A stretch of 64,000 nt of DNA. It comes from an uncultured Tateyamaria sp. Its GTDB lineage: Bacteria > Pseudomonadota > Alphaproteobacteria > Rhodobacterales > Rhodobacteraceae. The notes beneath the pieces were generated by a model, which searched no databases, had not been told where the DNA came from, and saw nothing but the letters and a program-made list of their open reading frames with translations. Every line of letters starts with the position of its first letter. Position 1 is the stretch's first letter. The stretch lies in NCBI GenBank assembly GCA_947501275.1, contig CANMVD010000009.1, positions 9,925-73,924 on the forward strand. Direction: 5' to 3'. The position numbers were made by a program, and so were the translations under genes. This document shows positions 22,371 to 39,418 of this stretch, in pieces.

Positions 22371-22392
22371 TTTTTGCACACGTGTGCAAAAA
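22371..22392. promoter_or_regulatory. Candidate LacI-family operator of the ABC/SnoaL island
   Basis: Perfect 22-bp palindrome TTTTTGCACACGTGTGCAAAAA with central CG, 54 nt upstream of the ATPase ATG. Confidence 0.8.
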
Positions 22393-22446: not shown

Positions 22447-23493
22447 ATGGCAGAAATCCAACTTCGCAATATCAACAAACGCTGGGGCAGCTTTGTTGGC
22501 GTTGACAGTTTTGACCTGACCATTGCGGATCAGGAATTCCTTGTTTTGCTCGGACCGTCGGGCTGCGGCAAGACGACGACAATGCGCATGATTGCAGGAC
22601 TTGAAGACGCCACCGAGGGCGACATCATGATTGATGGCAAGCGCGTCAATGATCTCGACCCCAAGGATCGTGATGTGGCCATGGTGTTTCAATCCTACGG
22701 CCTTTACCCCCACATGAACGTCTACGAAAACATCCGCTTTCCGCTGAAGGTGCGCAAAGTGGATGCGGCCAGCCACGATGAGAAAGTGCGCCGTGCCTCG
22801 GCCATGGTCGAGCTTGACGATTTCCTTCATCGCAAACCGGCCGAGTTGTCGGGCGGCCAACGCCAGCGCGTTGCTTTGGCGCGCGCCATTGTGCGTGAAC
22901 CAAACGTGTTTCTGATGGACGAACCCCTGTCCAATCTTGACGCCAAATTGCGTGTATCGACCCGCGCCCAGATCAAGAACCTGAGCCACGAGCTGAAGGT
23001 GACGACTGTCTACGTGACCCACGACCAGATCGAGGCCATGACGCTTGCCGACCGCGTTGTCGTGATGAAACAGGGTAAGGTGCAGCAAGTTGGCACGCCA
23101 ACGGACATCTACGACCGCCCGGCCAATACGTTTGTGGCCAGCTTTATTGGTTCTCCGGCCATGAACCTGATGGAAGGGTCCGTTTCCGGCGGGACATTTA
23201 CGGGCGACAATGTTTCGATCGAAGGGCTTTCCGTACCGGACGGCCCAGCGACGGTGGGCTTTCGGGCCGAAGACGCGACGTTGGCCGAAAGTGACGGTCA
23301 GATCAGCGCGCCCATCTACACAATCGAGCTGCTGGGGGATGCCACCATGCTGACGGTGCGCGCGGGCGGACAGCTGGTGTCGGTAAAGGCCCACAAGGAA
23401 TTCCGAGCCAACATCGGCGATATGGTGTCCTTCTCTATTCCGGCGGGCATTTGCCACGCCTTTGATACCTCGTCTGGCGAACGGCTGGATTGA
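22447..23493 (+). CDS. CUT1 (MalK/UgpC-like) ABC transporter ATP-binding protein
   Basis: GPSGCGKT, LSGGQRQR, MDEP, VTHDQ.EAM, C-terminal TOBE-like region. Confidence 0.95.
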   Translation: MAEIQLRNINKRWGSFVGVDSFDLTIADQEFLVLLGPSGCGKTTTMRMIAGLEDATEGDIMIDGKRVNDLDPKDRDVAMVFQSYGLYPHMNVYENIRFPLKVRKVDAASHDEKVRRASAMVELDDFLHRKPAELSGGQRQRVALARAIVREPNVFLMDEPLSNLDAKLRVSTRAQIKNLSHELKVTTVYVTHDQIEAMTLADRVVVMKQGKVQQVGTPTDIYDRPANTFVASFIGSPAMNLMEGSVSGGTFTGDNVSIEGLSVPDGPATVGFRAEDATLAESDGQISAPIYTIELLGDATMLTVRAGGQLVSVKAHKEFRANIGDMVSFSIPAGICHAFDTSSGERLD

Positions 23494-23592
23494 GGCAACG
23501 GCGCGCGATCGGGGGCACTCATCGCGCACTGCAAAACCGCCAGTGCAGGCTTGCAAGATGCACTGGCTCATAACGCAACAGGGAGTTTGCAT

Positions 23593-24825
23593 ATGTATCT
23601 GAAGAAACTGGCACTGGCGGGCGCGGTCTCGCTCTCGGGCATGTTGATGAGCACGGGCGCATACGCGGCCTGCGCATATGAAAACACGGTGCCGCTGAAA
23701 TCGCTGAGCGCGGGTTTTGAAGCGTGGAAAGCTGTCACAGACGCGATGGCGGAGTGCGGCAACTTTGAAGCAGAGCTGGATCAGGAATTCCGCACGAAGC
23801 AGCCCGCTGCTTTTGCGGCAAACCCGTCGCTGTATCAGATTGGCGGCGTGTCCAACGGCACAATCACACCTTTGCTGAACGCAGGCACCATCCGTCCGCT
23901 GGATGATCTGGTCGCCAAATACGGTCAGAACCTTGCGCCCAACCAACTGATCCGCGTGGATGGCAAGATCATGGCCGTGGCCATGATGGTGAACACGCAG
24001 CACCTGATGTATCGCGAAGACATCTTCAACGACCTCGGCATCGAGACACCCACATCCTGGGATGAAGTCTTTGCCGCCGCCGAAAAGATCAAGGCAGCCG
24101 GTGTGGTGGACTACGCGATTGGCGCGACAATGAAGTCGGGTTGGAACCTCGCGCAGGAATTCGTGAACATGTATCCCGGCTTTGGCGGTCAGTTCTTCAA
24201 TGGCGACAACACGACAGCTGTGAATTCTGACGCTGGTATCAAGGCGTTGGAAACAATGGCGAAAACACTGCCATACGCTGATCCAGAAGTGCTGGTCAGC
24301 GATTCCACCTACGTGCAGCAGCAGTTCCAGCAGGGCAAGATTGCCATGTCGAACCTGTGGGCAAGCCGTGGCGGTGCCATGAACGATGCCAACGAAAGCT
24401 CGGTTGTGGGCAAGGTCAAAATGGCCGCTGCACCAGTGGCCATGGAAGGTGGCGCACCAGCGACCACGCTGTGGTGGGATGGTGTCGTGATTGCCGCCAA
24501 CATCTCGGATGAAGAGGCAGATGCCGCGTTCCGACTGGTGATGGAAGGCATGGACGAAGAGATGGTCAAGGCCAACAACGAAGCCGCGATCTGGCTGGTG
24601 GGTGGCTATGAGCCGGGTCCATTGGCTGCCGGAGCAATTGCCACCGCGACAGCGACGCCTGCGGCTCCGCCTTATCCTTCGACCACGCAAATGGGTCTGT
24701 TGCACACCTCGCTGGGCAACGAACTGCCAGCCTTCCTGACGGGTGAACGCGATGCGGCGGCGACGCTTGTGGCCATCGAGGAAAGCTACACCACTGCCGC
24801 CAAGGAAGCCGGCATTCTGGAATAA
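23593..24825 (+). CDS. CUT1 ABC transporter substrate-binding protein
   Basis: Signal peptide (AYA); LMYREDIF..LGIETPTSWDE SBP_bac_1-like motif. Confidence 0.9.
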   Translation: MYLKKLALAGAVSLSGMLMSTGAYAACAYENTVPLKSLSAGFEAWKAVTDAMAECGNFEAELDQEFRTKQPAAFAANPSLYQIGGVSNGTITPLLNAGTIRPLDDLVAKYGQNLAPNQLIRVDGKIMAVAMMVNTQHLMYREDIFNDLGIETPTSWDEVFAAAEKIKAAGVVDYAIGATMKSGWNLAQEFVNMYPGFGGQFFNGDNTTAVNSDAGIKALETMAKTLPYADPEVLVSDSTYVQQQFQQGKIAMSNLWASRGGAMNDANESSVVGKVKMAAAPVAMEGGAPATTLWWDGVVIAANISDEEADAAFRLVMEGMDEEMVKANNEAAIWLVGGYEPGPLAAGAIATATATPAAPPYPSTTQMGLLHTSLGNELPAFLTGERDAAATLVAIEESYTTAAKEAGILE

Positions 24826-24833
24826 GAGAAAAT

Positions 24834-24867
24834 GCGGTTGGCCGGGGTTAACGTCTCGGCCAACCGC
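24834..24867 (+). other. Intra-operon stem-loop after the SBP gene
   Basis: GCGGTTGGCCGGGG-TTAACG-TCTCGGCCAACCGC; no U tract; typical position for stabilising SBP mRNA. Confidence 0.6.
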
Positions 24868-25090
24868 CCACAGTCGGGGGACCAATGGCACAGGAATTAG
24901 ATCATAGCGATGTGGGCGGTGGCTTTGCTGGATGCGCGGTGGACGCGCATCTTGCTGAACACCCCGGCACGAAGTCCTGCGTGATCAAGACGAGGTCAGA
25001 TGACACTGACAGCAGGCCACCCGCGGCAGCGCCAATTGTCGGCAGGCAGATCGGCAGCCAAAGGGCCGACGTGACACAAAGGAAAGCGGC

Positions 25091-26119
25091 ATGAAATTCA
25101 AGACGTTCTTCTGGTTCGTGGCTCCGTCCTTGTTCATGATGATCCTGTTCATCGCGGCGCCGCTGATTTCAGTTTTCATCCAGTCCTTTCAAATCACGCA
25201 GCCGGTCATGCAGCAGATCGAGGTTGAGACCTGTACGCCCGGTTTCCTGACCCAGACCTGCACAACCGAACTGAAAACCGTTCCGGTGATTGATGAGGCC
25301 ACTGGAAAGACCCAGACCACAACGGCTTGGGTCGGCCTAGAAAGCTATCGCAACGTGCTGCAAATGGACAAGGTATGGGCCGCGATCGGCTCGGGCCAGT
25401 TCCGTGACATCCTGCAAATCGATTTCTGGAAAGCGTTGCGCTTTACCTTGACGTTCACGTTGTTGACCCTGCCGTTGGTGGTGGGTGTCGGCCTTGCCAT
25501 CGCGCTGGCCGTGAACAATGCGGCCAAGTCGCTGCGCGGCCCTGTGATTTTCATCTCGCTTTTGCCTTTCATTATCACGCCGGTGATCGGGTCGTTGTCG
25601 ATCTATTGGCTGTTTGTGGGTGACGGCATTCTGACCACTACGCTTGAACGCTGGACCGGGCAGGATATCGCCATGTTCGCACAAAGCTGGACCATCGAAT
25701 TACTGATGTATTTTTACCGGGTCTGGCACGTGGCGCCCTTTGCCTTTGTGATTTTCTATGCCGGGCTGCAAACAGTGAATATGGATACGCTGGAAAGCGC
25801 CATTATCGATGGGGCATCCCGCTTTGAGCGGTTGCGCTACGTGATCGTGCCGCACCTGATGCCGTTGATCGTGTTCATTGCGCTGATCCACTTGATGGAT
25901 TGCTACCGCGTGTTCGAAGAAATCATTGGCTTCCGCTCTGAAGCGCACGTGATTTCCCTGCAATGGCTGACCTTTGATTTCCTCACACCGGATGATGCGG
26001 GCAACCGGGCGATCAGCCGCGCCTCTGCAAGCGCCATGCTGACCATGATCGGGATCGTGATCCTGTTGATCCTGCCACTGCGCCGCACATGGCGTGACCA
26101 TAAGGGAGGGGCGCACTGA
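25091..26119 (+). CDS. CUT1 ABC transporter permease (MalF-like)
   Basis: FVIFYAGLQ...TLESAIIDGASRFERLRYVIVPHL (EAA loop). Confidence 0.92.
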   Translation: MKFKTFFWFVAPSLFMMILFIAAPLISVFIQSFQITQPVMQQIEVETCTPGFLTQTCTTELKTVPVIDEATGKTQTTTAWVGLESYRNVLQMDKVWAAIGSGQFRDILQIDFWKALRFTLTFTLLTLPLVVGVGLAIALAVNNAAKSLRGPVIFISLLPFIITPVIGSLSIYWLFVGDGILTTTLERWTGQDIAMFAQSWTIELLMYFYRVWHVAPFAFVIFYAGLQTVNMDTLESAIIDGASRFERLRYVIVPHLMPLIVFIALIHLMDCYRVFEEIIGFRSEAHVISLQWLTFDFLTPDDAGNRAISRASASAMLTMIGIVILLILPLRRTWRDHKGGAH

Positions 26120-27273
26120 TGTCCTCGAAAGCCACTGCGCAGCCGCTGTCGCTGAAGATCGCCTCTGGTGCATTCCTCGCCTTCTGGTGTGTGCTTGCTG
26201 CCTTTCCAATCTTCTGGATTGCGGTGATGAGCGTCAAATCCCCGCGCGACGCCTTTGCGGCAAGCGCGTGGGACGTGATCACCGGCCCAGTGACCCAGGC
26301 TGCCGGCAATGGACTGTCCGTTCTGGATATCGTGATTGGCTTGGCCTTCTTGGTCTATGCTGTTCGCTGGGCCTTTACCGGCCTGCCCAAGCTGATTGCC
26401 CACTTGTCCCCGCCAGCGTGGATCGTGCTTGGCTGGCTGGTTGGTGCGGCTGTCTATGCGGTCGTTTTCGTGCTGCTGTTCTTTGGGCTGTTGCCGATCA
26501 TCCTTGGGGCCGTCAACGCGATTGCGGGACCTTTGGGCACGCCGATCCTCGGGTTGACGACGGAACACTATGTGGCCGTGTGGGGCGAAAACGCATTTTA
26601 CGAAAACTTCATCAACTCGATGATCGTGACGGCGGGCGTTGTCACCGTGTCGCTGACGGTGGGTACATTGGCGGGCTACGGGCTGGCGCGTTCTGGGTCA
26701 AACCTTGCGTTCTGGCTGTTGATCCTCGCGCTGATCTTTCGCGCGCTGCCGCATTCGGTTTTGGTGGCTGGCTACTTGCCATGGTTCATCAACTCTGCGG
26801 AAATCCTGCGGCCCATTTTTGGCGAGCTTTCCCCGACGCTTTATGGTCAGCCATGGGCGGTGATCGCCGTTCTTGTGGCCATCAACCAACCCTTCACCAT
26901 CTGGATGCTGCGTTCGTTCTTCCAGAACATTCCGTCCGAACTGGACGAGGCTGCGCGGGTTGACGGGTGCAGCCACTTTCAGGCGTTCCGCCGGGTGATT
27001 ATGCCGGTCATGTGGCCGGGGGTTATCACGACGGGTCTGTTCAGCTTTTTGTTGGGCTATAACGACTTCCTCGTCACATCCTTGCTGCTGGATGCCCAAA
27101 ACCAAACGATGGTGCCGGCAATTGCGGGCTACTTTAACCGCGAAACCACAACCACGGATCAGGTCGAAGCGGTGGCCGCGGCTGTGTCCATCACGGCGCC
27201 ATTGTTCCTGCTTGTCATGGTCTTTCAACGTCAGATCGTGAGCGGGTTGACTGCAGGGGCGGTCAAGGGCTGA
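26119..27273 (+). CDS. CUT1 ABC transporter permease (MalG-like, with extra TM insertion)
   Basis: FFQNIP.ELDEAARVDGCS EAA loop; 384 aa with an additional hydrophobic hairpin near the N-terminus. Confidence 0.92.
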   Translation: MSSKATAQPLSLKIASGAFLAFWCVLAAFPIFWIAVMSVKSPRDAFAASAWDVITGPVTQAAGNGLSVLDIVIGLAFLVYAVRWAFTGLPKLIAHLSPPAWIVLGWLVGAAVYAVVFVLLFFGLLPIILGAVNAIAGPLGTPILGLTTEHYVAVWGENAFYENFINSMIVTAGVVTVSLTVGTLAGYGLARSGSNLAFWLLILALIFRALPHSVLVAGYLPWFINSAEILRPIFGELSPTLYGQPWAVIAVLVAINQPFTIWMLRSFFQNIPSELDEAARVDGCSHFQAFRRVIMPVMWPGVITTGLFSFLLGYNDFLVTSLLLDAQNQTMVPAIAGYFNRETTTTDQVEAVAAAVSITAPLFLLVMVFQRQIVSGLTAGAVKG

Positions 27274-27344: not shown

Positions 27345-27375
27345 TGCAATACGTCGATCTCTTCAACGTATTGCA
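27345..27375. other. Intergenic inverted repeat before the first SnoaL gene
   Basis: TGCAATACGT-N11-ACGTATTGCA perfect 10-bp arms. Confidence 0.55.
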
Positions 27376-27404
27376 CACTCAAAGATGAATGAAAGGATGA
27401 TCCC

Positions 27405-27935
27405 ATGAAAGGATCTCGCCCCGAGCAAGCGGTGCTGACCCGCGACACGGACATGAGCAAAACGGATGCGACCCGCGCTGTGATTGAAGGTATGGTGGAC
27501 GGTCTCAATGACCACCGGATCGACGACATTGGCCAGTTCTTTGCACAGAGCTTTCGCTGGATGGGCAATACAGGGTGCGGCACCAAGACCGGCTTGCAGG
27601 AGTTTCAGGACAACTGGCAGCGTCCGTTTCAGGCGGCCTTTTCCGACAAGGTTTGCGTGGACGAGGCCCGTCTGTTCATGGGCGAATGGGCTGCGGCCTT
27701 TGGGCGACAGGAGGCCACGCACTCGGGCACCTTCATGGGGGTCGCCCCGACCGGCAAGCGGATCGAGATCCGCTATATGGATTTTTGGAAAGTCGAGGAA
27801 GATCGCATCACGGATAACTACGTGATGGTCGATTTCCCGCATGTATTGGCGCAGCTGGGGGTGGATGTATTCGACGGCGAGGGTTGGGAAGCTTTTGATC
27901 GCGGCGACAAGACCCCGCCGCGCCCGGATCAATGA
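27405..27935 (+). CDS. SnoaL/ester-cyclase-like protein (single NTF2 domain)
   Basis: ATHSGTFMGVAPTGKRIEIRYMDFWKV..DRI.DN.V.VD; AAAGGA RBS before ATG 27405 (alternative ATG 27453). Confidence 0.85.
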   Translation: MKGSRPEQAVLTRDTDMSKTDATRAVIEGMVDGLNDHRIDDIGQFFAQSFRWMGNTGCGTKTGLQEFQDNWQRPFQAAFSDKVCVDEARLFMGEWAAAFGRQEATHSGTFMGVAPTGKRIEIRYMDFWKVEEDRITDNYVMVDFPHVLAQLGVDVFDGEGWEAFDRGDKTPPRPDQ

Positions 27936-27943
27936 GGTAAGTC

Positions 27944-29272
27944 ATGACAATTGAGTATCTGAAGACGGCCAAGTCCGAGGCGGAACGCGCCGAAGATGAC
28001 GCCAAAGTGCGTTCAGCCGTCGAAGCGACGCTTGGCGATATCGAGGCGCGCGGAGATGAGGCCGTACGAGAATTGTCCGAAAAGTTCGACAATTACAGCC
28101 CGGACTCGTTCCGGCTGAGTATCGCGGAAATCGAGGCTCTGATTGCGGAGCTTTCCCCGCGTGAACTGGAGGATATCAAGTTCGCCCAACAGCAAGTGCG
28201 CGACTTTGCTCAGGCGCAACGAGAGTCGATGCTGGATATCGAGGTCGAGACGATGCCCGGTGTGATCCTTGGCCATAAAAACATCCCGGTTCAATCCGTG
28301 GGCTGTTACGTGCCCGGCGGCAAGTTCCCGATGGTGGCCTCGGCCCACATGTCGGTGGCTACGGCTTCGGTGGCAGGTGTGCCACGCATCATCGCCTGCA
28401 CACCACCTTGGCAGGGCAAACCCAATGCGGCGGTGATTGCGGCGATGCATCTGGGTGGCGCCCACGAGATTTACGTGATGGGGGGTATTCAGGCAGTGGG
28501 TGCGATGGCCATCGGGACCGAGACGATTGAACCCGTGCACATGCTTGTTGGACCGGGCAACGCCTTTGTCGCAGAAGCAAAGCGCCAGCTTTTTGGACGC
28601 GTCGGCATAGATCTGTTTGCCGGTCCCACCGAAACCATGGTGATTGCGGACGAAACCGTGGACGGAGAGATGTGTGCAACCGATCTGCTGGGACAGGCCG
28701 AGCATGGCTACAACTCACCCGCTGTTCTGCTGACCAATTCACGCAAACTGGCTGAGGAGACATTGGCAGAGATTGACCGGATTCTGACCATTTTACCGAC
28801 GGCCGATACCGCATCGAAGTCGTGGGAAGATTATGGTGAGGTCATTCTGTGCGACACCTACGACGAGATGTTGAAGGTGGCCGATGATGTCGCCAGCGAG
28901 CATGTGCAGGTGATGACGGATCGTGACGACTGGTTCTTGGAACATATGACCTGCTATGGGGCTCTGTTCCTTGGGCCGCGCACGAATGTCGCCAATGGCG
29001 ACAAGGTGATCGGCACCAACCACACTCTGCCCACCAAAAAGGCAGGGCGTTACACTGGTGGTTTGTGGGTTGGCAAGTACCTCAAGACGCACTCGTATCA
29101 GAAGGTCCTGACAGACGAAGCCGCCGCCGAGATCGGAGCCTATGGGTCGCGTTTGTGCATGCTCGAGGGGTTCGTGGGCCATGCAGAGCAATGCAATCTG
29201 CGGGTGCGCCGCTATGGCGGCGTAAATGTGCCCTATGGCACGGGTGCGCCTGCACGGGATGCTGCGGAATAG
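27944..29272 (+). CDS. Histidinol dehydrogenase-superfamily NAD/Zn dehydrogenase, HpsN-like paralog of unknown substrate
   Basis: [54 protein letters not shown]; no his operon context. Confidence 0.88.
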
Positions 29273-29332: not shown

Positions 29333-30343
29333 GTGAGTATCGAAATCAATCAACGTAACAAGACCGTCGCGTTGGATCTGTGGGCTACGCTGGATTCTGA
29401 CCCCGCCGCCGCCCTGCCCATGCTTGATCATGTGATCCATTGGCAAGGTCCGGAGCCGATTGGGGTTCAGAAGTCTGGGGCTGACATTGTCGGCGCGCTG
29501 TTTGCGCCGCTGCGTGCGGCTATCCCGGATTTGACGCGTGAAACCCATATCTTCATGGGCGGGCAGTCGGATGCCGAAGAAGACGGGCGGGGCGATGGCC
29601 ATTGGTGGGTTGCTGGAACAGGCTATTTCACAGGGCGCGCGACCTCTGAAGCCTTCGGCATACCTGTAACTGATCACGATTTGCGTATCCGATGGGGTGA
29701 GTTTTTACGCTTTGACGCGGATGGCAACATCACCCATGCGCAAACGATCTGGGACTTTGTCGACTGGTTTGACCAGATCGGACATCCCGTTTTGCCGCGT
29801 CCACGGGGCGCGATGCATGTCTACCCGGCACCGACGGGCTACGATGGTGTGTTGGCTGGCCCTCAGGCGCAGGTTGAGACCATCGATACGCGCGCATTCG
29901 GGCGAGACTTTATCTTTGACGGTCTGAACAGCTTTGATGAGACGGATCTGTCCAGCATGGGGATGGCCAAGTTCTTTCACCCCAATCTCAAGTGGTACGG
30001 TCCCGGCGGGATCGGGGCCTGTCTGTCGCTGTCGGAGTTCGAAACATACCATCAACAGCCGTGGCTGGTTGCCTTTCCGGATCGCAAGGTCATGCATTTG
30101 GAAAGCCTGTTCGCGGAAGGACGGATGCTGGCGGCATCTGGGCCCAAAGGTGTGGTTGGTCATCATAAGGGTGTTTATCTGGGCCACGCGGCCACCGGTG
30201 CGGCAATCGAATTTTCCGGCCTTGATTTTTGGTTGCGTGATGGTGGCCAGTTCACTGAAAACTGGGTTTTTGTCGATATGATCCATTTGTTTGCCCAGAT
30301 CGGGGTGGACCTGTTTGCCCGATTGAAGAAAGCCGACGCATGA
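29333..30343 (+). CDS. Two-domain SnoaL/ester-cyclase-like protein A
   Basis: GTG start; two NTF2-type repeats; FHPNLKWYGPGGIG, GLDFWLR....ENWVFVD. Confidence 0.82.
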   Translation: MSIEINQRNKTVALDLWATLDSDPAAALPMLDHVIHWQGPEPIGVQKSGADIVGALFAPLRAAIPDLTRETHIFMGGQSDAEEDGRGDGHWWVAGTGYFTGRATSEAFGIPVTDHDLRIRWGEFLRFDADGNITHAQTIWDFVDWFDQIGHPVLPRPRGAMHVYPAPTGYDGVLAGPQAQVETIDTRAFGRDFIFDGLNSFDETDLSSMGMAKFFHPNLKWYGPGGIGACLSLSEFETYHQQPWLVAFPDRKVMHLESLFAEGRMLAASGPKGVVGHHKGVYLGHAATGAAIEFSGLDFWLRDGGQFTENWVFVDMIHLFAQIGVDLFARLKKADA

Positions 30344-31389
30344 GTGACGTGCATTCCACCCACAAGGACCTGATCGCCCCGGTGCGCGCGGCCATGTATG
30401 ACTTTGACCTTGCGGCCCTGCGCGATGCGCTGCACGCAGTATGCGCGCCCGATGTCGTCTTTCACCTTGCCTTTCCATTTGAGACGATCAGGGGGGTCGA
30501 AGCCTATGTCGAGCAGGTGTATGCCCCGCTTTTGGCGGCCCTGCCGGATTTGGAACGCCGCGATCACATCGTGATGGCCGGACCCACGCCGGAAGGCGCG
30601 GATTGGGTCGGGTGCGGGGGTTATTACACGGGCACATTCTTTGCCCCGTGGCTGGATATCCCGCCGACGGGCCATATCGTGCATATGCGCCATCACGAGT
30701 TTTACCGCTTTGAGGCTGGCAAGATTAGCGAAATGCAGGCGCTTTGGGATATTCCCGAGGTGATGATACAGGCGGGGGCGTGGCCATTGGCGCCATCGCT
30801 TGGGCGGGAATGGCATGTGCCGGGACCGGCGAGTAGTGATGGTCTGGTGCCCGGGCCGTACGATGCGGATGCAGGGCAGGCCACGTGTCAGCACATCATC
30901 GATATGCTGGAGCATATGAAGCGCCATCCCTCCCAAGGTGGGCCGGAGGTCATGGAAATGGATCGTTTCTGGCATCCAAAGATGATGTGGTACGGCCCCT
31001 CGGGCATCGGCTCCGGGCGCGGCATCAAAGGCTTTCGGGACTGGCACCAGATTCCGTTTCTGAACGCGATGCCGGACAGAGGCCAATACGTGGACGAGAT
31101 CAACTATCACTTCTTTGGGGATCGCGGGTATGCTGCAGTGACGGGATGGCCCAACATGTACCAGACGGTGACGCATGGTGGCTGGTTGGGACTGCCTCCA
31201 ACGGACAAGAAGATCGCCATGCGCAGTCTCGATTTCTGGAGGCTGGAGCACGGGCTGATAAGGGAGAACTGGGTGTTGGTGGACTTGCTGCACATGTATG
31301 ATCAGATTGGTGTGGATGTGCTGGCGCGCATGCGTGAATTCAACAAGGCGCGCGTCGGATTTGATGTCGAGACGGGGCGTGCGCAATGA
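30340..31389 (+). CDS. Two-domain SnoaL/ester-cyclase-like protein B
   Basis: WLDIPPTG, WHPKMMWYGPSGIG, SLDFWRL....ENWVLVD; paralog of the previous gene; ATGA overlaps. Confidence 0.82.
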   Translation: MSDVHSTHKDLIAPVRAAMYDFDLAALRDALHAVCAPDVVFHLAFPFETIRGVEAYVEQVYAPLLAALPDLERRDHIVMAGPTPEGADWVGCGGYYTGTFFAPWLDIPPTGHIVHMRHHEFYRFEAGKISEMQALWDIPEVMIQAGAWPLAPSLGREWHVPGPASSDGLVPGPYDADAGQATCQHIIDMLEHMKRHPSQGGPEVMEMDRFWHPKMMWYGPSGIGSGRGIKGFRDWHQIPFLNAMPDRGQYVDEINYHFFGDRGYAAVTGWPNMYQTVTHGGWLGLPPTDKKIAMRSLDFWRLEHGLIRENWVLVDLLHMYDQIGVDVLARMREFNKARVGFDVETGRAQ

Positions 31390-32147
31390 CCGAGTTGCCA
31401 CGCACCCCGCCATTGGATCTGAGTGGCAAGCGCGCTTTGGTGACAGGTGCATCATCCGGTATCGGGTTGGGATGTGCTGTGGCGTTGGCAGAGGCGGGGG
31501 CCCATGTGGTCTGTGCCGCGCGTCGACCGGATGTGCTGGCGGATGTCGTTGCGGCCATGCAGGCAGAAGGCTGGAGCGCAGAAGCATTGCCTCTGGATCA
31601 AACGGATCTTGAGGCCGTGAAAGCTGCCCTTGGGCAACCCTACGATGTGGTGCTGAATTCCGCAGGCCTCGCCCGCCATGCCCCTGCAATTGAAACGACG
31701 CCCGAAGATTTTGACGCGGTGGTGAACATCAACCTGCGCAGCGCCTTTTTCCTGTCCTCCTATGCGGCCAAGGCCCTGATGGATGCGGGCAAACCGGGCT
31801 CCATCATCCACATATCGTCCCAGATGGGGCATGTGGGGGGCATAGATCGCTCGGTTTACTGCGCCACGAAACATGGAGTCGAGGGGATGGTCAAAAGCAT
31901 GGCCATCGAATGGGGCAAAGCGGGCATTCGCATCAACACGATTTGCCCGACTTTCATTCGCACGGCTTTGACAAAAGTCACCTTTGACAACCCGGAACGC
32001 TATGCGTGGATCATGGACAAGATCAAGTTACCGCGCGTAGGCGAGGTCAGCGACATCATGGGGGCTGTCCAGTTCCTTGCGTCGGATGCATCCGCCATGG
32101 TGACGGGTACCCATATCCTGATCGACGGAGGCTGGACAGCGGACTGA
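31386..32147 (+). CDS. Short-chain dehydrogenase/reductase (classical SDR)
   Basis: TGASSGIG, NSAG, ISSQMG, YCATK, IDGG. Confidence 0.93.
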   Translation: MTELPRTPPLDLSGKRALVTGASSGIGLGCAVALAEAGAHVVCAARRPDVLADVVAAMQAEGWSAEALPLDQTDLEAVKAALGQPYDVVLNSAGLARHAPAIETTPEDFDAVVNINLRSAFFLSSYAAKALMDAGKPGSIIHISSQMGHVGGIDRSVYCATKHGVEGMVKSMAIEWGKAGIRINTICPTFIRTALTKVTFDNPERYAWIMDKIKLPRVGEVSDIMGAVQFLASDASAMVTGTHILIDGGWTAD

Positions 32148-33166
32148 TGGACAGACCTGTGACGGCATTGGATGTGGCACAAAAAGCGGGCGTATCGCGC
32201 TCGGCGGTGAGCCGTGTGTTTACGCCCGGCGCATCCGTGTCCAAGCGCACCGCGGAAAAGGTGCGTTGCGCGGCTGATGCGTTGGGCTATCGGCCCAATG
32301 TCTTGGCCAGATCGCTGATTACGGGGCGCAGCCGGATCATCGGCCTTGTGGTCGCCTACCTAGAAAATCAGTTCTACCCCGAAGCCATTGAACGGCTCAG
32401 CCGGCACTTGCAGGAGCGCGGCTATCACGTGCTGGTCTTCATGGCGTCCAACTCGGGTGAAGAGGCCGACGAAGTGATGGAAGAACTGCTCGACTACCAG
32501 GTCGACGGAATTATTGCGGCCAGTGTGGGGATGTCCAATGACCTGACGCGACGCTGCGAAGCCGCTGGCATCCCGATTGTGCTGTTCAACCGTGCACAGG
32601 ATGATGACCGTCTGTCTTCGGTCACGTCCGACAATTATCACGGGGGCCGCAAGCTGGCGGAGTTTCTTGTGGCAGGCGGACACAAACGCGTGGCCCATAT
32701 CGCCGGTTGGGAGGGGGCCTCTACCCAGCGGGACCGCGAAGCCGGTTTTGTTGCAGGATTGGCGGCGGCAGGGCAAACCCTCGCCGCGCGCGGCGTCAGT
32801 GATTTCGATTTTGAGCGGGCCAAAACAATCGCCCGCGAGATGTTCAGCTCTGACACTTATCCCGATGCCGTGTTTTGCGCCAACGACCACATGGCCTTTG
32901 CCGTCATGGATGTGCTGCGGTTCGAGTTGGGCCTGCGAGTGCCCGACGACGTGTCCGTTGTGGGCTATGACGATGTCACGCTGGCAGCATGGCCCAGCTA
33001 TGATTTGACGACGGTGCGCCAGCCTGCGGGGCAAATGGCGCGCGCGACGGTCGATATTCTGATGGATCGCTTGGCCGATCCCGAGACCAAACCCCGCCGG
33101 GTTGCGCTTGATGGACCTTTGATCCTGCGTCGCTCGGCCCGCATTCCAGAAGGTTGGACCACATGA
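32147..33166 (+). CDS. LacI family transcriptional regulator
   Basis: VTALDVAQKAGVSRSAVSRV HTH, YRPNVLARSL, PDAVFCAND, VSVVGYDD; TGATG overlap with the SDR. Confidence 0.95.
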   Translation: MDRPVTALDVAQKAGVSRSAVSRVFTPGASVSKRTAEKVRCAADALGYRPNVLARSLITGRSRIIGLVVAYLENQFYPEAIERLSRHLQERGYHVLVFMASNSGEEADEVMEELLDYQVDGIIAASVGMSNDLTRRCEAAGIPIVLFNRAQDDDRLSSVTSDNYHGGRKLAEFLVAGGHKRVAHIAGWEGASTQRDREAGFVAGLAAAGQTLAARGVSDFDFERAKTIAREMFSSDTYPDAVFCANDHMAFAVMDVLRFELGLRVPDDVSVVGYDDVTLAAWPSYDLTTVRQPAGQMARATVDILMDRLADPETKPRRVALDGPLILRRSARIPEGWTT

Positions 33167-34146
33167 AGGGCTTTTCGAACCGTTTTGCCGATTTCCCGGA
33201 CTACATCATCGGCATCACCAAGGAGATCTGGGAGGATCGCGGCATCGCGACTCTGCACCATTACTACAGTCCCGACATTGTGGTGCGTTCTCCTGCAAGC
33301 GTGGTGATTGGCAATCAGAAAGTCATTGGCGCCACCATGGCGACACTGGCCGAATTCCCTGATCGCACGTTGCTGGGCGAGGATGTGATCTGGTCCGGCA
33401 CACCGGAAGAGGGGATGTTGTCCTCGCACCGCATCCTGTCCACTGCGACCCACATGGCCGATGGCATGTACGGCAAAGCGTCAGGCAAGAAGCTGCAATA
33501 CCGCATCATTGCGGATTGTCACGCCATTAACGACCAGATCAATGACGAGTGGCTGATCCGCGACCAGACAGCAATCGTGAACCAGATCGGGTGGGAGGCC
33601 AAAGCCTTTGCCGCCGATTTGATCGAACGCGAAGGCGGGATGGACAAGGCGGTCATGCCGCTGACCCCGGCGACCGATCAGCCCGGCCCCTACAAGGGGC
33701 GTGGCAATGACAACGCCTGGGGCCAGAAATACGCAGATGTCCTGACGCGCATCATGGGCGCGGACATGGCTGTCATCCCGAGTGAATATGACCGCGCGAT
33801 CCAGTCCGAATATCCCGGTGGCGCAACCGGGCACGGCACCGCGCCTGTGGATCAGTTCTGGATGGGGCTGCGGGCGTCCTTCCCCGATGCCACGTTCTCC
33901 ATAGATCACCAGATCGGGCGCGACGACCCGACGATGCCGCCACGCGCGGCGATCCGCTGGGCGATGCACGGCAAGCATGATGGATGGGGCTACTTCGGCG
34001 CACCCACTGGGGCCGAAGTCTACGTGTTGGGGATTTCCCATGCCGAGTTTGGCTCGCTTGGGGTTGCCCAACCCAAAATCCGGCGTGAGTTTACACTGTT
34101 TGACGAAACGGCGATCTGGAAGCAGATCCTTCTGCAAACCGGATAG
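33163..34146 (+). CDS. Two-domain SnoaL/ester-cyclase-like protein C
   Basis: EIWEDR.....YYSPDIV, AEFPDR, EWLIRD; second repeat RASFPDA..., HGKHDGWGYFGAPTG; ATGA overlap with LacI. Confidence 0.78.
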   Translation: MKGFSNRFADFPDYIIGITKEIWEDRGIATLHHYYSPDIVVRSPASVVIGNQKVIGATMATLAEFPDRTLLGEDVIWSGTPEEGMLSSHRILSTATHMADGMYGKASGKKLQYRIIADCHAINDQINDEWLIRDQTAIVNQIGWEAKAFAADLIEREGGMDKAVMPLTPATDQPGPYKGRGNDNAWGQKYADVLTRIMGADMAVIPSEYDRAIQSEYPGGATGHGTAPVDQFWMGLRASFPDATFSIDHQIGRDDPTMPPRAAIRWAMHGKHDGWGYFGAPTGAEVYVLGISHAEFGSLGVAQPKIRREFTLFDETAIWKQILLQTG

Positions 34147-35417: not shown

Positions 35418-35690
35418 ATGCAGTTCTCCTTTAACTATTCTACCTTTCGCGGGTTCTTTGACAGCTTCTCGAAACCCGTGGGCGAGCGCGCCGTTCACGT
35501 TGTGAATGGCAACATCAAAGTGCAACAACGCGGAGAAGGCGACGATGCGCGGTTTTACCTGCGCATCCGCTCTGGCTTTTCCAATTTTCAGTATCAGCGT
35601 ATCGAGTGGGCACAAATGCTCGCCCTTGCCGAAGCCTTGGTCGATATGGCTCAAGACTGCGAAACTCAAGAAAAGGACAACACGACATGA
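35418..35690 (+). CDS. Small hypothetical protein (90 aa)
   Basis: AGGTGGAG RBS, ATG 35418; stop overlaps the cupin ATG (ATGA); no family recognised. Confidence 0.6.
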   Translation: MQFSFNYSTFRGFFDSFSKPVGERAVHVVNGNIKVQQRGEGDDARFYLRIRSGFSNFQYQRIEWAQMLALAEALVDMAQDCETQEKDNTT

Positions 35691-36652
35691 CCCCCGCCGA
35701 GATGGAGCCGCGCATTGTGCGTTACGGCGATCTGATGCCCTGCAAGACCGCCTTTATCGATGCCCACACGCCGGGGTCCGACCAAAAGGAGAATTTTACC
35801 ATCATCGGGGGTGGGGTCTCGGAATCGGCGGACCAGCATGTCCATATTTCGATCCCGCACGGGTTTAACATCGGGGCGGCCGGGCAACCGCCCAAGTGCC
35901 GAAACTCCCTGCACTCCCACCGCACGGCAGAGGTGTTTTTTGTCTTGTCGGGGCGTTGGCGGTTTTTCTGGGGGCGCTACGGTGATGCAGGTGAGGTCGT
36001 GCTGGAAGAAGGCGACATCATCAACATCCCCACAGGGATCTTTCGCGGCTTTGAAAATATCGGAACAGAGTACGGGATGATCATGGCGATCCTTGGAGGC
36101 GATGATGCCGGGGGCGGCGTCATTTGGGCCCCGCAAGTGATCGAGGATGCGGCGGATCACGGGCTGGTGCTGGGCGAGAACGGACAGCTTTATGACACCA
36201 AGGCCGGGGCAACCTTGCCCGACGGGGTCGCGCCGATGCCCGTGCTCAGCGAAGACGAGCTCAAGCACTACCCGGAGATGACACCGGGCGAGGTTGTTGG
36301 CATGGGGGTGCGCCGCTACTGGGATATGGTTGCGCTGGCCAAGGACACGCCCTGCAAGGTGATTGGCGAGACCGGGATCATCCGTGACAAACCGGGTTTC
36401 GAGGTTGATCTGATCACCCGCAGTTCCGCCACGCACGACATGCACCAGCACGACCGTCCGTCGGTTCTGATGCCCATGCGCGGCCATTGGCGCGTGAGTT
36501 GGGAGGGGGGCAGCACGACCCTTGCCCCCGGCGACACGATGAGCGTGCCGGAAAACATGCCCCACAGCGCCGTTCCGTCGATGACGGGACCGGCATCGCT
36601 CTATCATGTCGTCGGTACGGACGATCCTGCAGGGCCCACATGGCAAGGCTGA
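35687..36652 (+). CDS. Bicupin protein
   Basis: Cupin 1 HSHRTAEVFFVLSG...GDIINIPTG; cupin 2 HQH...GDTMSVPENMPH. Confidence 0.85.
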   Translation: MTPAEMEPRIVRYGDLMPCKTAFIDAHTPGSDQKENFTIIGGGVSESADQHVHISIPHGFNIGAAGQPPKCRNSLHSHRTAEVFFVLSGRWRFFWGRYGDAGEVVLEEGDIINIPTGIFRGFENIGTEYGMIMAILGGDDAGGGVIWAPQVIEDAADHGLVLGENGQLYDTKAGATLPDGVAPMPVLSEDELKHYPEMTPGEVVGMGVRRYWDMVALAKDTPCKVIGETGIIRDKPGFEVDLITRSSATHDMHQHDRPSVLMPMRGHWRVSWEGGSTTLAPGDTMSVPENMPHSAVPSMTGPASLYHVVGTDDPAGPTWQG

Positions 36653-37569
36653 TTGCATGTGTTCTGGGCCTTTGGGTTTGCGCTGTGCACGCGCAGGCGC
36701 AGGTCTGGCAGGCGCAAACCGTGGATGGCGGGCATTTTGTCTTTCACATCGCGCGCGCGGGGGTGGCCGTAGACTTTGTCTGCCTTGCACCCTCCCTGCA
36801 GCGACGCCCTGCCGTAGACGTCGAGCAGCACGAGATCAGGCCCATGGCGCCCGGCATGACCCGGCTTGAGATCGGGACCGAGCGCGTGCCTGTTGGCAAT
36901 GACGTGATCCGCAATGACGTTGTTTTGTGGGCGGATCAGACGGGGTACCGGCTGCCGACCATCACGTTCAACGAACTCGATGGCGTTTGGCAGGTGGATA
37001 TCTCGGCCACGGATCCGATGTGGACCGGCTTGGTGCAGGCAAGCACGGTGATACTCGCGCCCGGTCAGGCGCAGGCCTGGCAATTGCCTGTGGCCGGGTT
37101 GGCTGGTGCGGTGACGCAGGTCCAAAGCGACTGCGCACAGGCGTGGTCGGCCGCGCAAGCCGCACCAGCGCCTGCGCAAGGTATCGTGACCATTCCGCCA
37201 GAAGTTGGCGCGCGCGTCAGTCAGGGGTGTGGCGCGCAGACGCCGCTGCCGGGCGCAGCGGTGCAGGCTGGCGACCTTGACCGCGATGGCACGCCAGACT
37301 TTGTGGTGAACTGGGGAGAGATCAGATGCCCCGGTGCCAATGCGCGCCCTTTCTGCGGGGCTGCCAATTGCAGTCAGATGGTGTTCCTGTCTTCGCGCCG
37401 TTTTCTGGACCCTGTCGACTTTTTGGGCACCTCTCTCACGATCGTGCCACACCACAGCGGTGCGCTGGCCCTCAGGATGACGGGTTCCTTTTCTCTGTGC
37501 GGCGCACAAGGAGAAAACTGTGCCAACCCATTGGTGTGGGATGGTGCTTCATTCGTTGAACGGCCATAA
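36640..37569 (+). CDS. Secreted hypothetical protein with DxDxDG Ca-binding-like loop and Cys pairs
   Basis: Signal peptide (AQA), Ala/Pro linker, GDLDRDGTPD, FCGAANC. Confidence 0.7.
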   Translation: MARLIACVLGLWVCAVHAQAQVWQAQTVDGGHFVFHIARAGVAVDFVCLAPSLQRRPAVDVEQHEIRPMAPGMTRLEIGTERVPVGNDVIRNDVVLWADQTGYRLPTITFNELDGVWQVDISATDPMWTGLVQASTVILAPGQAQAWQLPVAGLAGAVTQVQSDCAQAWSAAQAAPAPAQGIVTIPPEVGARVSQGCGAQTPLPGAAVQAGDLDRDGTPDFVVNWGEIRCPGANARPFCGAANCSQMVFLSSRRFLDPVDFLGTSLTIVPHHSGALALRMTGSFSLCGAQGENCANPLVWDGASFVERP

Positions 37570-37598: not shown

Positions 37599-38720
37599 AT
37601 GGTTTTAACGACACATGCGGGCAGCCTGCCACGCACGCAAGAGATCGTCGATTTCATTTTTGCGCGTGAGCGTGGCGAGGACTACGATCCGGCCGCCTTT
37701 GACGCCGCCATGACGGCGGCGGTCGATGTGACGGTTGCCAAACAGGTGGCCGCAGGTGTCGGCATTGTCAGTGATGGCGAGACGTCCAAGATCAGCTATG
37801 CCACCTATGTCAAGGATCGCTACACCGGCTTTTCTGGCGACAGCCCCCGCAATGCTCCCGCCGACCTCAAGAAATTCCCCAGTTTCCTCAAGCGCCTTGC
37901 AGACGATGGTGGCACCCCGCAATATGCACGCCCCATGTGCACGGGGCCCGTGAAAAGCCGTGGGCAGGGCGAGTTGGGAAAGGACATCGCCAATCTCAAG
38001 GCTGCCATGGCCAAACACGGGGCCGAGCGGGGCTTTATGAATGCCGCCTCACCGGGTGTGATTTCGTTGTTTTTGCAAAACGACTACTATCCCACGCGCG
38101 AGGCTTATCTGGCCGCGCTGGCTGATGCGATGAAGGAAGAATACGAAACCATCGTGGCGGCGGGTCTGGATCTGCAACTTGACTGCCCCGACCTCGCGCT
38201 CAGCCGTCACATGCTGTTTGCAGATCTCAGCGATGCCGAATTCCTGAAAATCGCAGACGCGCATGTGGAAGCGATGAATTATGCGTTGTCGGATGTGCCT
38301 GCCGAGAAAGTTCGTGTGCACATCTGCTGGGGCAACTACGAGGGGCCGCATGTCTGTGATATCGACATGGACACGGTGTTTCCGACGCTGATGGCAACCA
38401 AGGCGCGCTACATGCTGTTTGAAACGTCCAACCCCCGCCACGCCCATGAATGGACCGTGTTCCGCGACCGGCGCAGCGAAATCCCTGACGACAAGGTGCT
38501 GGTGCCGGGGGTCGTCGACACAACCACGAATTTTGTCGAGCACCCCGAAGTTGTGCGCCAACGGATCGATCGGTTCACAGACATCGTGGGCGAGGATCGG
38601 GTGATTGCGGGCAGCGACTGCGGCTTTGGCACCTTTGCGGGCTTTGGGGCCGTCGATCCTGACATTGCCTATGCCAAACTTCAGGTGATGGCCGAAGGTG
38701 CCGCATTGGCCAAAGGATAA
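37599..38720 (+). CDS. Cobalamin-independent methionine synthase II-like (single-barrel MetE/UROD superfamily) Zn enzyme
   Basis: TTHAGSLPR, SDGE, LQLDCP, HICWGNY (HxC), DCGFGT (third Zn ligand); 373 aa, so no N-terminal folate-binding barrel. Confidence 0.88.
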   Translation: MVLTTHAGSLPRTQEIVDFIFARERGEDYDPAAFDAAMTAAVDVTVAKQVAAGVGIVSDGETSKISYATYVKDRYTGFSGDSPRNAPADLKKFPSFLKRLADDGGTPQYARPMCTGPVKSRGQGELGKDIANLKAAMAKHGAERGFMNAASPGVISLFLQNDYYPTREAYLAALADAMKEEYETIVAAGLDLQLDCPDLALSRHMLFADLSDAEFLKIADAHVEAMNYALSDVPAEKVRVHICWGNYEGPHVCDIDMDTVFPTLMATKARYMLFETSNPRHAHEWTVFRDRRSEIPDDKVLVPGVVDTTTNFVEHPEVVRQRIDRFTDIVGEDRVIAGSDCGFGTFAGFGAVDPDIAYAKLQVMAEGAALAKG

Positions 38721-38725
38721 GCGCG

Positions 38726-39418
38726 ATGGACAACGCCCTGCACGATCTGTTGGCCTCGGTCGACACGCCAACTGTGTGCAACGCCATCGAGGTGGCCCAA
38801 GGAAAACGCGGCTTTAACGGGTTTACGCGCGGCACAATGCTGGCCTCGGATCCGGGTGGCGTGATGGTCGGCTATGCCCGCACGGCACGCATACGGGCTG
38901 TCGCTCCGCCAACCGAAGCGCCCGAGGTGATCAAGGCGCGGCGCATGGCCTATTACCGCTACATGTCCGAAGGTTCTCGACCCGCGGTATGTGTGGTGCA
39001 GGACCTTGATGTACCTGCCGCAATCGGGGCGTATTGGGGTGAGGTGAACACCAATATACACAAGGCATTCGGGCTTGCGGGTACTCTGACGGACGGAGTG
39101 ATGCGGGATCTCGGGGATGTGGCCGAAGGCTATCCGGTTGTCGCGGGATCAATTGGGCCCAGCCACGGATATGTGCACGTGATTGACTACGATCTGCCGG
39201 TGCGGATCCACGGGCTCGATATCCGGCCGGGCGATCTGGTCCATGCGGACCGTCACGGCGCAGTTGTGGTGCCACCGGATGTGATCGACACGCTGGCGGC
39301 TGCCATTGCAACGCTCATGCAATCTGAAAAGATCGTGTTTGACGCGGTAAAGGACAAGCGTATCTCGTTTGAGGATTTCGAGGTGGCTTGGGCCGCGTTT
39401 GAGGCCGCGCGCACGTGA
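38726..39418 (+). CDS. RraA/HMG aldolase-like family protein
   Basis: DTPTVCNA, AYWGEV, TDGVMRD, PGDLVHADRHGAVVVP. Confidence 0.85.
   Translation: MDNALHDLLASVDTPTVCNAIEVAQGKRGFNGFTRGTMLASDPGGVMVGYARTARIRAVAPPTEAPEVIKARRMAYYRYMSEGSRPAVCVVQDLDVPAAIGAYWGEVNTNIHKAFGLAGTLTDGVMRDLGDVAEGYPVVAGSIGPSHGYVHVIDYDLPVRIHGLDIRPGDLVHADRHGAVVVPPDVIDTLAAAIATLMQSEKIVFDAVKDKRISFEDFEVAWAAFEAART

Follow-up and report, generated by a model that had tools for sequence, protein, structure and literature searches.

A HisD-family dehydrogenase clade, sister to HpsN, in a conserved LacI/ABC-importer operon of an uncultured Tateyamaria sp. and other Alphaproteobacteria

To our knowledge, the fold of histidinol dehydrogenase (HisD) has just two established activities, namely the oxidation of histidinol and the oxidation of 2,3-dihydroxypropane-1-sulfonate (DHPS) or cysteinolate. 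In E. coli HisD, His327 is the general base. HpsN, which acts on the sulfonates, is separated from HisD by the motif G-R-Y-A/S-H, as opposed to G-S-A-P-L (PMC11382572). In HpsN, His126 coordinates the zinc in the resting state, and in the complex with product it forms a hydrogen bond to the sulfonate, as does Lys353 (PMC11382572). Lee et al. (2024) used hpsO and hpsP neighbours as a criterion for HpsN and discarded homologues without them. Here we analyse a HisD-family gene, termed HisD-like below, in a 64,000-nucleotide stretch of DNA (the window) from an uncultured Tateyamaria sp. of the Rhodobacteraceae (GenBank assembly GCA_947501275.1, contig CANMVD010000009.1, positions 9,925 to 73,924). 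A preliminary description of the window had presented the gene product as a third type, neither HisD nor typical HpsN, and this view is upheld by phylogeny, by the diagnostic motif, by paralogues in the same genome and by gene context. We consider it probable (roughly 0.72) that the gene encodes a functional zinc/NAD+ dehydrogenase of a separate clade, which would oxidize an imported metabolite other than a sulfonate at its -CH(OH/NH2)-CH2OH end.

The gene (27944..29272, + strand) is an intact open reading frame (ORF) of 442 codons with an ATG start and no interruption. It begins 8 nt past the stop codon of the preceding SnoaL gene and has a GAGG Shine-Dalgarno sequence 6 nt 5' of its start. 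A terminator-like hairpin was looked for 3' of the gene and none was found. The 442-aa product matched the Pfam family PF00815 over its full length (445 bits, profile positions 4-410 of 411). It also scored 428.9 bits against the NCBI hisD model TIGR00069, well above the cut-off of 243.8 bits, and public records therefore name its orthologues 'histidinol dehydrogenase' (NCBI/UniRef); some at JGI are called sulfopropanediol 3-dehydrogenase. Neither database name is supported for this clade. The closest solved structures were CpHpsN (8V35, 393 bits) and RpHpsN (8WWE, 382 bits), and the best HisD was 4G07 (252 bits). Identity was ~47% to the HpsN structures and only 35-40% to HisD.

The motifs quoted in the preliminary description (QAEH, EH, D, EG..GH, GDK and the substrate loop) were all found at aligned positions, and all lie on the + strand. 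The conserved Q251-A-E-H254 (28694..28705) holds two of the four zinc ligands. The Asp of G352-D353-K354 (28997..29005) is a further ligand, and H413 in E408-G-F410-V411-G-H413 (29165..29182) is the ligand given to the partner subunit. The catalytic pair E319-H320 (28898..28903) is equivalent to E318/H319 of CpHpsN. Residue by residue, Q251, H254, D353, H413, E319 and H320 align with CpHpsN Q248, H251, D352, H411, E318 and H319, and each of these zinc ligands and catalytic residues was retained in 22 or 23 of the 23 clade rows inspected. His359 of CpHpsN is also kept in the HisD-like protein. K354, which corresponds to CpHpsN Lys353 and is common to HpsN, was present in 22 of these 23 rows.

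The substrate loop (motif definition from PMC11382572) reads P124-G-G-K127-F128-P129-M130-V131-A-S133 (28313..28342, + strand), and K127, F128, P129 and M130 stand where HpsN has R123, Y124, A(S)125 and H126. All 42 rows of the HisD-like clade read G-[KR]-[YF]-P-[MLI], with Met, Leu or Ile at the position of HpsN His126, and all but one (GDR) have GDK. In contrast, the 24 HpsN-clade rows without exception have His at this position and read G-R-[YF]-x-H together with GDK. GDY or GDF was found in 46/46 HisD-type rows; the HisD-like protein has K354 instead of the Tyr. The Pro-Leu/Met of the loop resembles that of many genuine HisDs (G-R-Y-P-L; also G-S-A-P-L). The clade thus looks like a combination of an ancestral HisD-type loop with the Tyr-to-Lys change common to HpsN, to which HpsN would later have added Ala/Ser-His. 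Further clade-specific changes in the pocket region relative to CpHpsN are S355 to I356, M408 to F410, E409 to V411, S374 to W375 and Q107 to H111. With these substitutions, the site is expected to be more hydrophobic than in HpsN. DHPS or cysteinolate is an unlikely substrate of the HisD-like enzyme, given that it lacks the His that binds the sulfonate.

A PF00815 profile search of the assembly's contigs returned three kinds of HisD-family gene. A canonical HisD on contig C1 scored 554.6 bits and has the loop PGGLASYPSS and GDY, and a canonical HpsN on contig C17 scored 415 bits and has PGGRYSHIAS and GDK; the crystallized CpHpsN has PAGRYAHIAS and GDK. The motif contrasts that the preliminary description gave for the two known families (GDY against GDK, and the HpsN loop) hold in the genome's HisD, in its HpsN and in CpHpsN. 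The genomic hpsN is followed by genes for a short-chain dehydrogenase/reductase (SDR) and a zinc-dependent alcohol dehydrogenase, which is the hpsN-hpsO-hpsP arrangement, and a tripartite ATP-independent periplasmic (TRAP) permease gene (DctM) adjoins on contig C6. C17 is a 4.4-kb collapsed-repeat contig. The 5' end of its hpsN runs onto contigs C5 and C6, and the two continuations differ in N-terminus and upstream genes. Probably, the genome carries two near-identical hpsNOP copies that were collapsed in the assembly. As a canonical HisD and a canonical HpsN are already present, the HisD-like gene is a third kind.

A fourth type of HisD-family protein was seen in other genera. It has the loop G-R-F-P-[LI] and SDK in place of GDK or GDY, is ~46% identical to the HisD-like protein and branches outside both the HisD-like and the HpsN clades. 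Examples are L189 (G026:C1:3382054-3383280), the second ORF of L159, P0157, G103, G117 and G064. Its gene often lies only a few kb from the HisD-like operon in those genera and is absent from the genome studied here.

Phylogenetic analysis with HisD and HpsN references, as the preliminary description had proposed, placed the HisD-like gene outside both clades and sister to HpsN. The larger tree comprised 119 rows: representatives of 50%-identity clusters from a library of 1.8 billion proteins, orthologues from 40 genera, 20 HpsN-type paralogues of the family, the genome's own three types and CpHpsN. The HisD-like clade (42 rows) had a support of 95 and the HpsN clade (24 rows) one of 99 in the Shimodaira-Hasegawa-like approximate likelihood ratio test (SH-aLRT); the two were sisters (SH-aLRT 99), and the GDY HisDs stood apart. 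In this tree, loop motif and clade membership coincided exactly. A tree of 55 rows gave the values 100/95 for the HisD-like clade, 100/99 for HpsN, 100/99 for both together and 99/91 for the split from HisD (ultrafast bootstrap/SH-aLRT). The genome's own HisD on contig C1 fell within the GDY group of the trees. The gene therefore represents a separate, old and widespread orthologous clade.

The distribution of the clade was surveyed in 151 genomes of the family, one per genus. Identities to the HisD-like protein were bimodal, with orthologues at 65-90%, then a gap, then paralogues at 45-49%. Orthologues occurred in about 80 of the 151 genera, and the HisD-like type and the paralogue type were found together in at least 38 of the genomes. 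Class-wide, 37 of 308 genera, spread across many families, carried an orthologue. Hosts include Tateyamaria, Roseobacter, Ruegeria, Shimia, Sulfitobacter, Yoonia, Loktanella, Leisingera, Planktomarina, Roseibium and Cohaesibacter. As the gene often occurs alongside HpsN and HisD, its function is presumably not redundant with theirs. Literature searches returned work on HisD and HpsN and no description of the HisD-like clade or its operon.

The fold, residues, clade and distribution of the HisD-like enzyme are thereby established, and the same applies to its gene context. In the window, the genes for an ATP-binding cassette (ABC) importer of the CUT1 type are followed by a SnoaL gene, the HisD-like gene, two tandem-SnoaL genes, an SDR gene, a LacI gene and a third tandem-SnoaL gene. 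Then come genes for a PNPOx-like protein, DUF6653, a bicupin, an exported Cys-rich ORF and MetE-like, RraA-like and CIA30-like proteins. The operon genes are co-directional and closely spaced or overlapping. The importer (22447..27273, +) consists of an ATPase (22447-23493), a solute-binding protein (23551-24825) and two permeases (25091-26119 and 26119-27273). The single-domain SnoaL/NTF2 gene (27405..27935, +) is separated by an 8-nt gap from the HisD-like gene. The two genes for tandem-NTF2 (double SnoaL) proteins (29333..31389, +; 29333-30343 and 30340-31389) lead to the gene for the KduD/HpsO-like SDR (31386..32147, +). The ATG of the LacI-family regulator gene (32147..33166, +) overlaps the SDR stop by 1 nt, and the third tandem-NTF2 gene (type C) extends over 33154..34146 (+). 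The bicupin has 322 aa from a conserved ATG (35684..36652, +). The MetE-like protein (37599..38720, +) is a single-barrel member of PF01717 with an H-x-C...C zinc motif, and the RraA-like protein (38726..39418, +) belongs to an aldolase/decarboxylase family.

We counted these genes in the ±10-kb flanks of 63 close-orthologue loci from named genomes. LacI and tandem-SnoaL type C were each present at 62 loci, the bicupin at 59, the SDR at 58, the ABC ATPase at 57, tandem-SnoaL type B (30340-31389) at 55 and the single-domain SnoaL at 52. The MetE-like (50/63) and RraA-like (44/63) genes are probably undercounted owing to the length of the flanks. PNPOx-like (10), CIA30-like (5) and DUF6653 (4) genes were rarely present and are thus not part of the core. 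Wherever the identity of the dehydrogenase was 75% or more, the same core was found in other alphaproteobacterial families. At 55-68% identity usually only the SDR was left, with or without LacI, bicupin or SnoaL, which suggests that the dehydrogenase-SDR pair is the kernel of the operon. A 55% identical metagenomic relative retains LacI, the tandem SnoaL of type C and the SDR. The cluster has no his genes, no hpsP or other gene for a medium-chain dehydrogenase/reductase (MDR; PF00107/PF08240), and no suyAB, xsc, cuyA or slcD.

A perfect 22-bp palindrome, TTTTTGCACACGTGTGCAAAAA, was read directly 5' of the importer genes (22371..22392) and is a likely LacI operator. The half-site TTGCACAC (27371-27378) stands ahead of the SnoaL and HisD-like genes.

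Several features of the locus vary between genomes. The tandem-SnoaL gene at 29333-30343 is a lineage-specific extra paralogue of 30340-31389, with a close counterpart at only 8 of the 63 loci. The importer ATPase is 68-85% identical across orthologous loci. For the binding protein and the first permease, identity to the versions in the window falls into two ranges, 59-83% and only 37-45%, which suggests two importer variants, possibly for related substrates, with the same enzyme set. In several other genera, a protein of ~230 aa beginning MTPLVLLPGMMCDARLF is encoded between the MetE-like and RraA-like genes (L038 16701-17393, L037 2675-3376, L164 15599-16288, L165 13513-14220 and L047 3716-4453), and its N-terminal sequence led us to judge it an alpha/beta-hydrolase. 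This gene is missing from the window, where a mere 5 nt separate the MetE-like gene from the RraA-like gene. Additional proteins judged from their sequence are a glucose-methanol-choline (GMC) oxidoreductase (L038 7276-8796) and an amidase (L047 1690-3057). The Cys-rich ORF of the window (36487-37569, 360 aa) has a signal peptide-like start and no Pfam or NCBIfam match; with a counterpart at only 2 of the 63 loci, it appears to have been inserted between the genes for the bicupin and the MetE-like protein. Two unusual contexts might hint at other substrates within the clade. At L152 (G174:C6), a 59% identical member adjoins an 806-aa gene that was judged dimethylglycine/sarcosine dehydrogenase-like from its length and N-terminus, and at L168 (G438:C1) an 80% identical member adjoins genes judged hydantoinase A/B-like from their sequence.

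Of all partners, the SDR is the one that most consistently accompanies the HisD-like gene. It scored 173 bits with KduD and 139.5 bits with HpsO, is 37% identical to the genome's own HpsO-like SDR and by these matches is assigned to the KduD/gluconate-5-dehydrogenase/HpsO type. The preliminary description had paired it with the dehydrogenase as a stereo-inverting partner in the manner of HpsO and HpsP. The pairing stands, both at the close loci and beside many of the 55-68% identical relatives. The stereo-inversion does not: it needs HpsP as a second (MDR) dehydrogenase, which the cluster does not contain, and we rejected it.

The other partners did not point to a particular substrate. The N-terminal cupin of the bicupin has invariant H52, H54, H77, H79 and E83 (H-x-H-x3-E) and an Arg at the usual last metal-binding His, and the C-terminal cupin has no invariant His or metal ligands. 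The longest ORF of this gene (35606-36652) begins at a GTG; all orthologues begin at the ATG at 35684 (MTPAEME...). A sequence search of the PDB with the bicupin gave no match. Its AlphaFold2 model (mean predicted local distance difference test score, 81.9) matched only generic bicupins at template-modelling scores of ~0.5: MncA, quercetinase, oxalate decarboxylase, salicylate/gentisate dioxygenase and vicilins. Compared with solved structures, the MetE-like and RraA-like proteins had only distant or uncharacterized matches. The solute-binding protein was weakly similar to many CUT1 binders of sugars, polyols and glyceryl glycosides, with no specific match.

From these data we infer the activity, the catabolic direction and the substrate class of the HisD-like enzyme. 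Its complete catalytic apparatus and evident purifying selection lead us to expect the chemistry of HisD and HpsN. The enzyme would be a homodimer in which Gln251, His254 and Asp353 of one subunit and His413 of the other coordinate the zinc, with His320 as base and Glu319 as its partner. In a substrate R-CH(X)-CH2OH, the group X (OH or NH2) together with a second donor atom would coordinate the octahedral zinc. Two successive hydride transfers to two NAD+, from alcohol to aldehyde and from hydrated aldehyde to carboxylate, would complete a four-electron oxidation to R-CH(X)-COOH. Because Lys354 is kept, the sequence suggests an oxyanion or a strong hydrogen-bond acceptor as the second donor. 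Without His126, and with M130, I356, F410, V411 and W375 as hydrophobic substitutions, the site seems better suited to a less polar or bulkier R than to a tetrahedral sulfonate. The CUT1 importer and the LacI control suggest that the metabolite taken up is polar and either neutral or zwitterionic. In a LacI-repressed operon, the enzyme would act on this small metabolite or on an early pathway intermediate. The adjacent SDR probably oxidizes a secondary hydroxyl close to this group, in either the substrate or the product, and the NTF2-fold enzymes, the bicupin and the MetE-like and RraA-like proteins may process the product further. The phrase of the preliminary description, a 'new-specificity primary-alcohol oxidizing enzyme', thus seems the best inference at the level of sequence.

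Some observations weigh against an enzyme with a single non-sulfonate substrate. The score with the NCBI hisD model exceeds the cut-off (428.9 against 243.8 bits). HisD-family enzymes are promiscuous: RpHpsN also oxidizes histidinol, with an efficiency that is 691-fold lower, and DHPS is a substrate of HisD. A weak side-activity with histidinol or DHPS is therefore possible and would not alone overturn the assignment. As Lys354 is kept, an anionic substrate is possible, in principle even a sulfonate. Moreover, distant clade members (57-72% identity) occur in varied contexts. Their neighbours include a NitT/TauT-type ABC system (beside a 72% identical relative), TRAP systems, a thiamine diphosphate enzyme, a dimethylglycine dehydrogenase-like gene and hydantoinases, or an aminotransferase with a D-Ser-dehydratase-like gene. 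No one compound emerges from these heterogeneous contexts, and the wider clade may span several related substrates.

Three other explanations were weighed. The HisD-like protein could be an HpsN isozyme that acts on a C3 sulfonate such as DHPS or L-cysteinolate. Annotation in the style of JGI/KEGG ('sulfopropanediol 3-dehydrogenase') implies this, and the name HpsN is found in some sources. The lead of the HpsN structures over HisD in bit score and identity, the retained sulfonate-contacting Lys (K353, here K354), the adjoining HpsO-like SDR and the NitT/TauT-type system beside the 72% identical relative are all in line with this explanation. However, the motif G-R-Y-A/S-H is not present, and none of the 42 clade rows has the His126 equivalent. 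The cluster is devoid of hpsP, suyAB, xsc, cuyA and slcD, and its importer is a CUT1 sugar-type ABC system, unlike the known DHPS transporters (TRAP and major facilitator superfamily, MFS). In addition, the same genome has canonical hpsN-hpsO-hpsP genes, probably as two sets, and both types coexist in at least 38 genomes. We consider an isozyme unlikely and rejected it on the missing His126, the missing sulfolyase and the canonical copies in the same genome.

A second, redundant histidinol dehydrogenase would account for the score above the TIGR00069 cut-off, for the presence of all catalytic and zinc residues and for the name in public records. It conflicts with the lack of the GDY tyrosine, with the tree separation (99/91), with the absence of his genes nearby and the higher-scoring canonical HisD elsewhere in the genome, and with the position of the gene within a LacI/ABC operon of catabolic type. 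On motif, tree and context we rejected this highly improbable explanation. The operon might also be biosynthetic or modifying, for example in polyketide-like or cyclitol tailoring, with the dehydrogenase installing a carboxylate on the product. SnoaL/NTF2 proteins are classically biosynthetic cyclases, and several partners have no catabolic precedent. Yet genes for polyketide synthases, non-ribosomal peptide synthetases, terpene synthesis and sugar-phosphate cyclases are absent from the cluster; the binding-protein-dependent importer at its head and the LacI repressor are typical of catabolic loci; and the cluster is found in hundreds of ordinary heterotrophic marine genomes. A biosynthetic role thus appears quite improbable.

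For the favoured catabolic dehydrogenase, one speculative substrate class was considered. By chemical logic alone, the operon could serve the degradation of algal sunscreens, i.e. mycosporine-like amino acids, 4-deoxygadusol or gadusol, although we think this doubtful. The HisD-like enzyme would oxidize the ring C(OH)-CH2OH to C(OH)-COOH, and the tertiary OH and beta-enolate oxygen of 4-deoxygadusol could form a six-membered zinc chelate, as do the 2-OH and a sulfonate oxygen of DHPS. Removal of the amino acids joined by imine bonds would fall to the NTF2 enzymes. O-demethylation, perhaps by the MetE-like protein, would be followed by dioxygenolytic C2-C3 cleavage of the reductone, perhaps by the bicupin. 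The seven-carbon product would be 4-carboxy-4-hydroxy-2-oxoadipate (CHA), which fits exactly in its number of carbons and its functional groups. This compound is the substrate of the RraA-family CHA aldolases, which yield pyruvate and oxaloacetate. Literature searches found no report of catabolic genes for mycosporine-like amino acids or gadusol.

If the favoured assignment is true, the HisD-like clade represents a third specificity of the HisD fold. About half of the genera in the Roseobacter group carry it, as do many further marine Alphaproteobacteria, and annotation systematically mistakes it for one of the two known enzymes. In the Tara survey, the cut-off for hpsN was 167 bits. As members of the HisD-like clade score ~390 bits against HpsN, hpsN surveys based on bit scores would capture them and arrive at too high an estimate of DHPS-oxidizing potential. 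In addition, the enzyme offers a way into a conserved operon and possibly to an unrecognized carbon currency between phytoplankton and bacteria. It should be tractable, being soluble, with an easy NADH read-out and a crystallized homologue at 47% identity. Furthermore, the natural contrast between His126 and Met/Leu offers a clean test of how HpsN gained its sulfonate specificity.

Taken together, the HisD-like enzyme shares with HpsN (EC 1.1.1.308; 8V35, 8WWE) the PF00815 fold, the zinc ligands Gln/His/Asp/His', the Glu-His pair, the GDK lysine, an adjacent gene for a KduD-type SDR and its sister position in the tree. It differs from HpsN in reading G-K-F-P-M instead of G-R-Y-A/S-H, with no His126 for the sulfonate or the resting zinc, in its predicted more hydrophobic pocket, in the absence of an HpsP or sulfolyase partner, in a sugar-type ABC importer instead of TRAP or MFS systems, and in its coexistence with a genuine HpsN. 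With HisD (EC 1.1.1.23; E. coli 1KAE, Medicago 5VLD) it has in common the fold, the loop Pro followed by Leu/Met and, as predicted, the four-electron Zn/NAD+ mechanism. Unlike HisD, it has GDK instead of GDY, belongs to a separate clade and lies outside any his-gene context in a genome with its own canonical HisD. At the level of the locus, its partners (seven NTF2 domains, a bicupin and MetE-like and RraA-like proteins, with no desulfonation enzyme) set it apart from the hpsNOP loci of Roseobacteraceae and Cupriavidus. The overall plan is nevertheless the same: regulator, transporter, HisD-family dehydrogenase and SDR in what would be one inducible catabolic unit.

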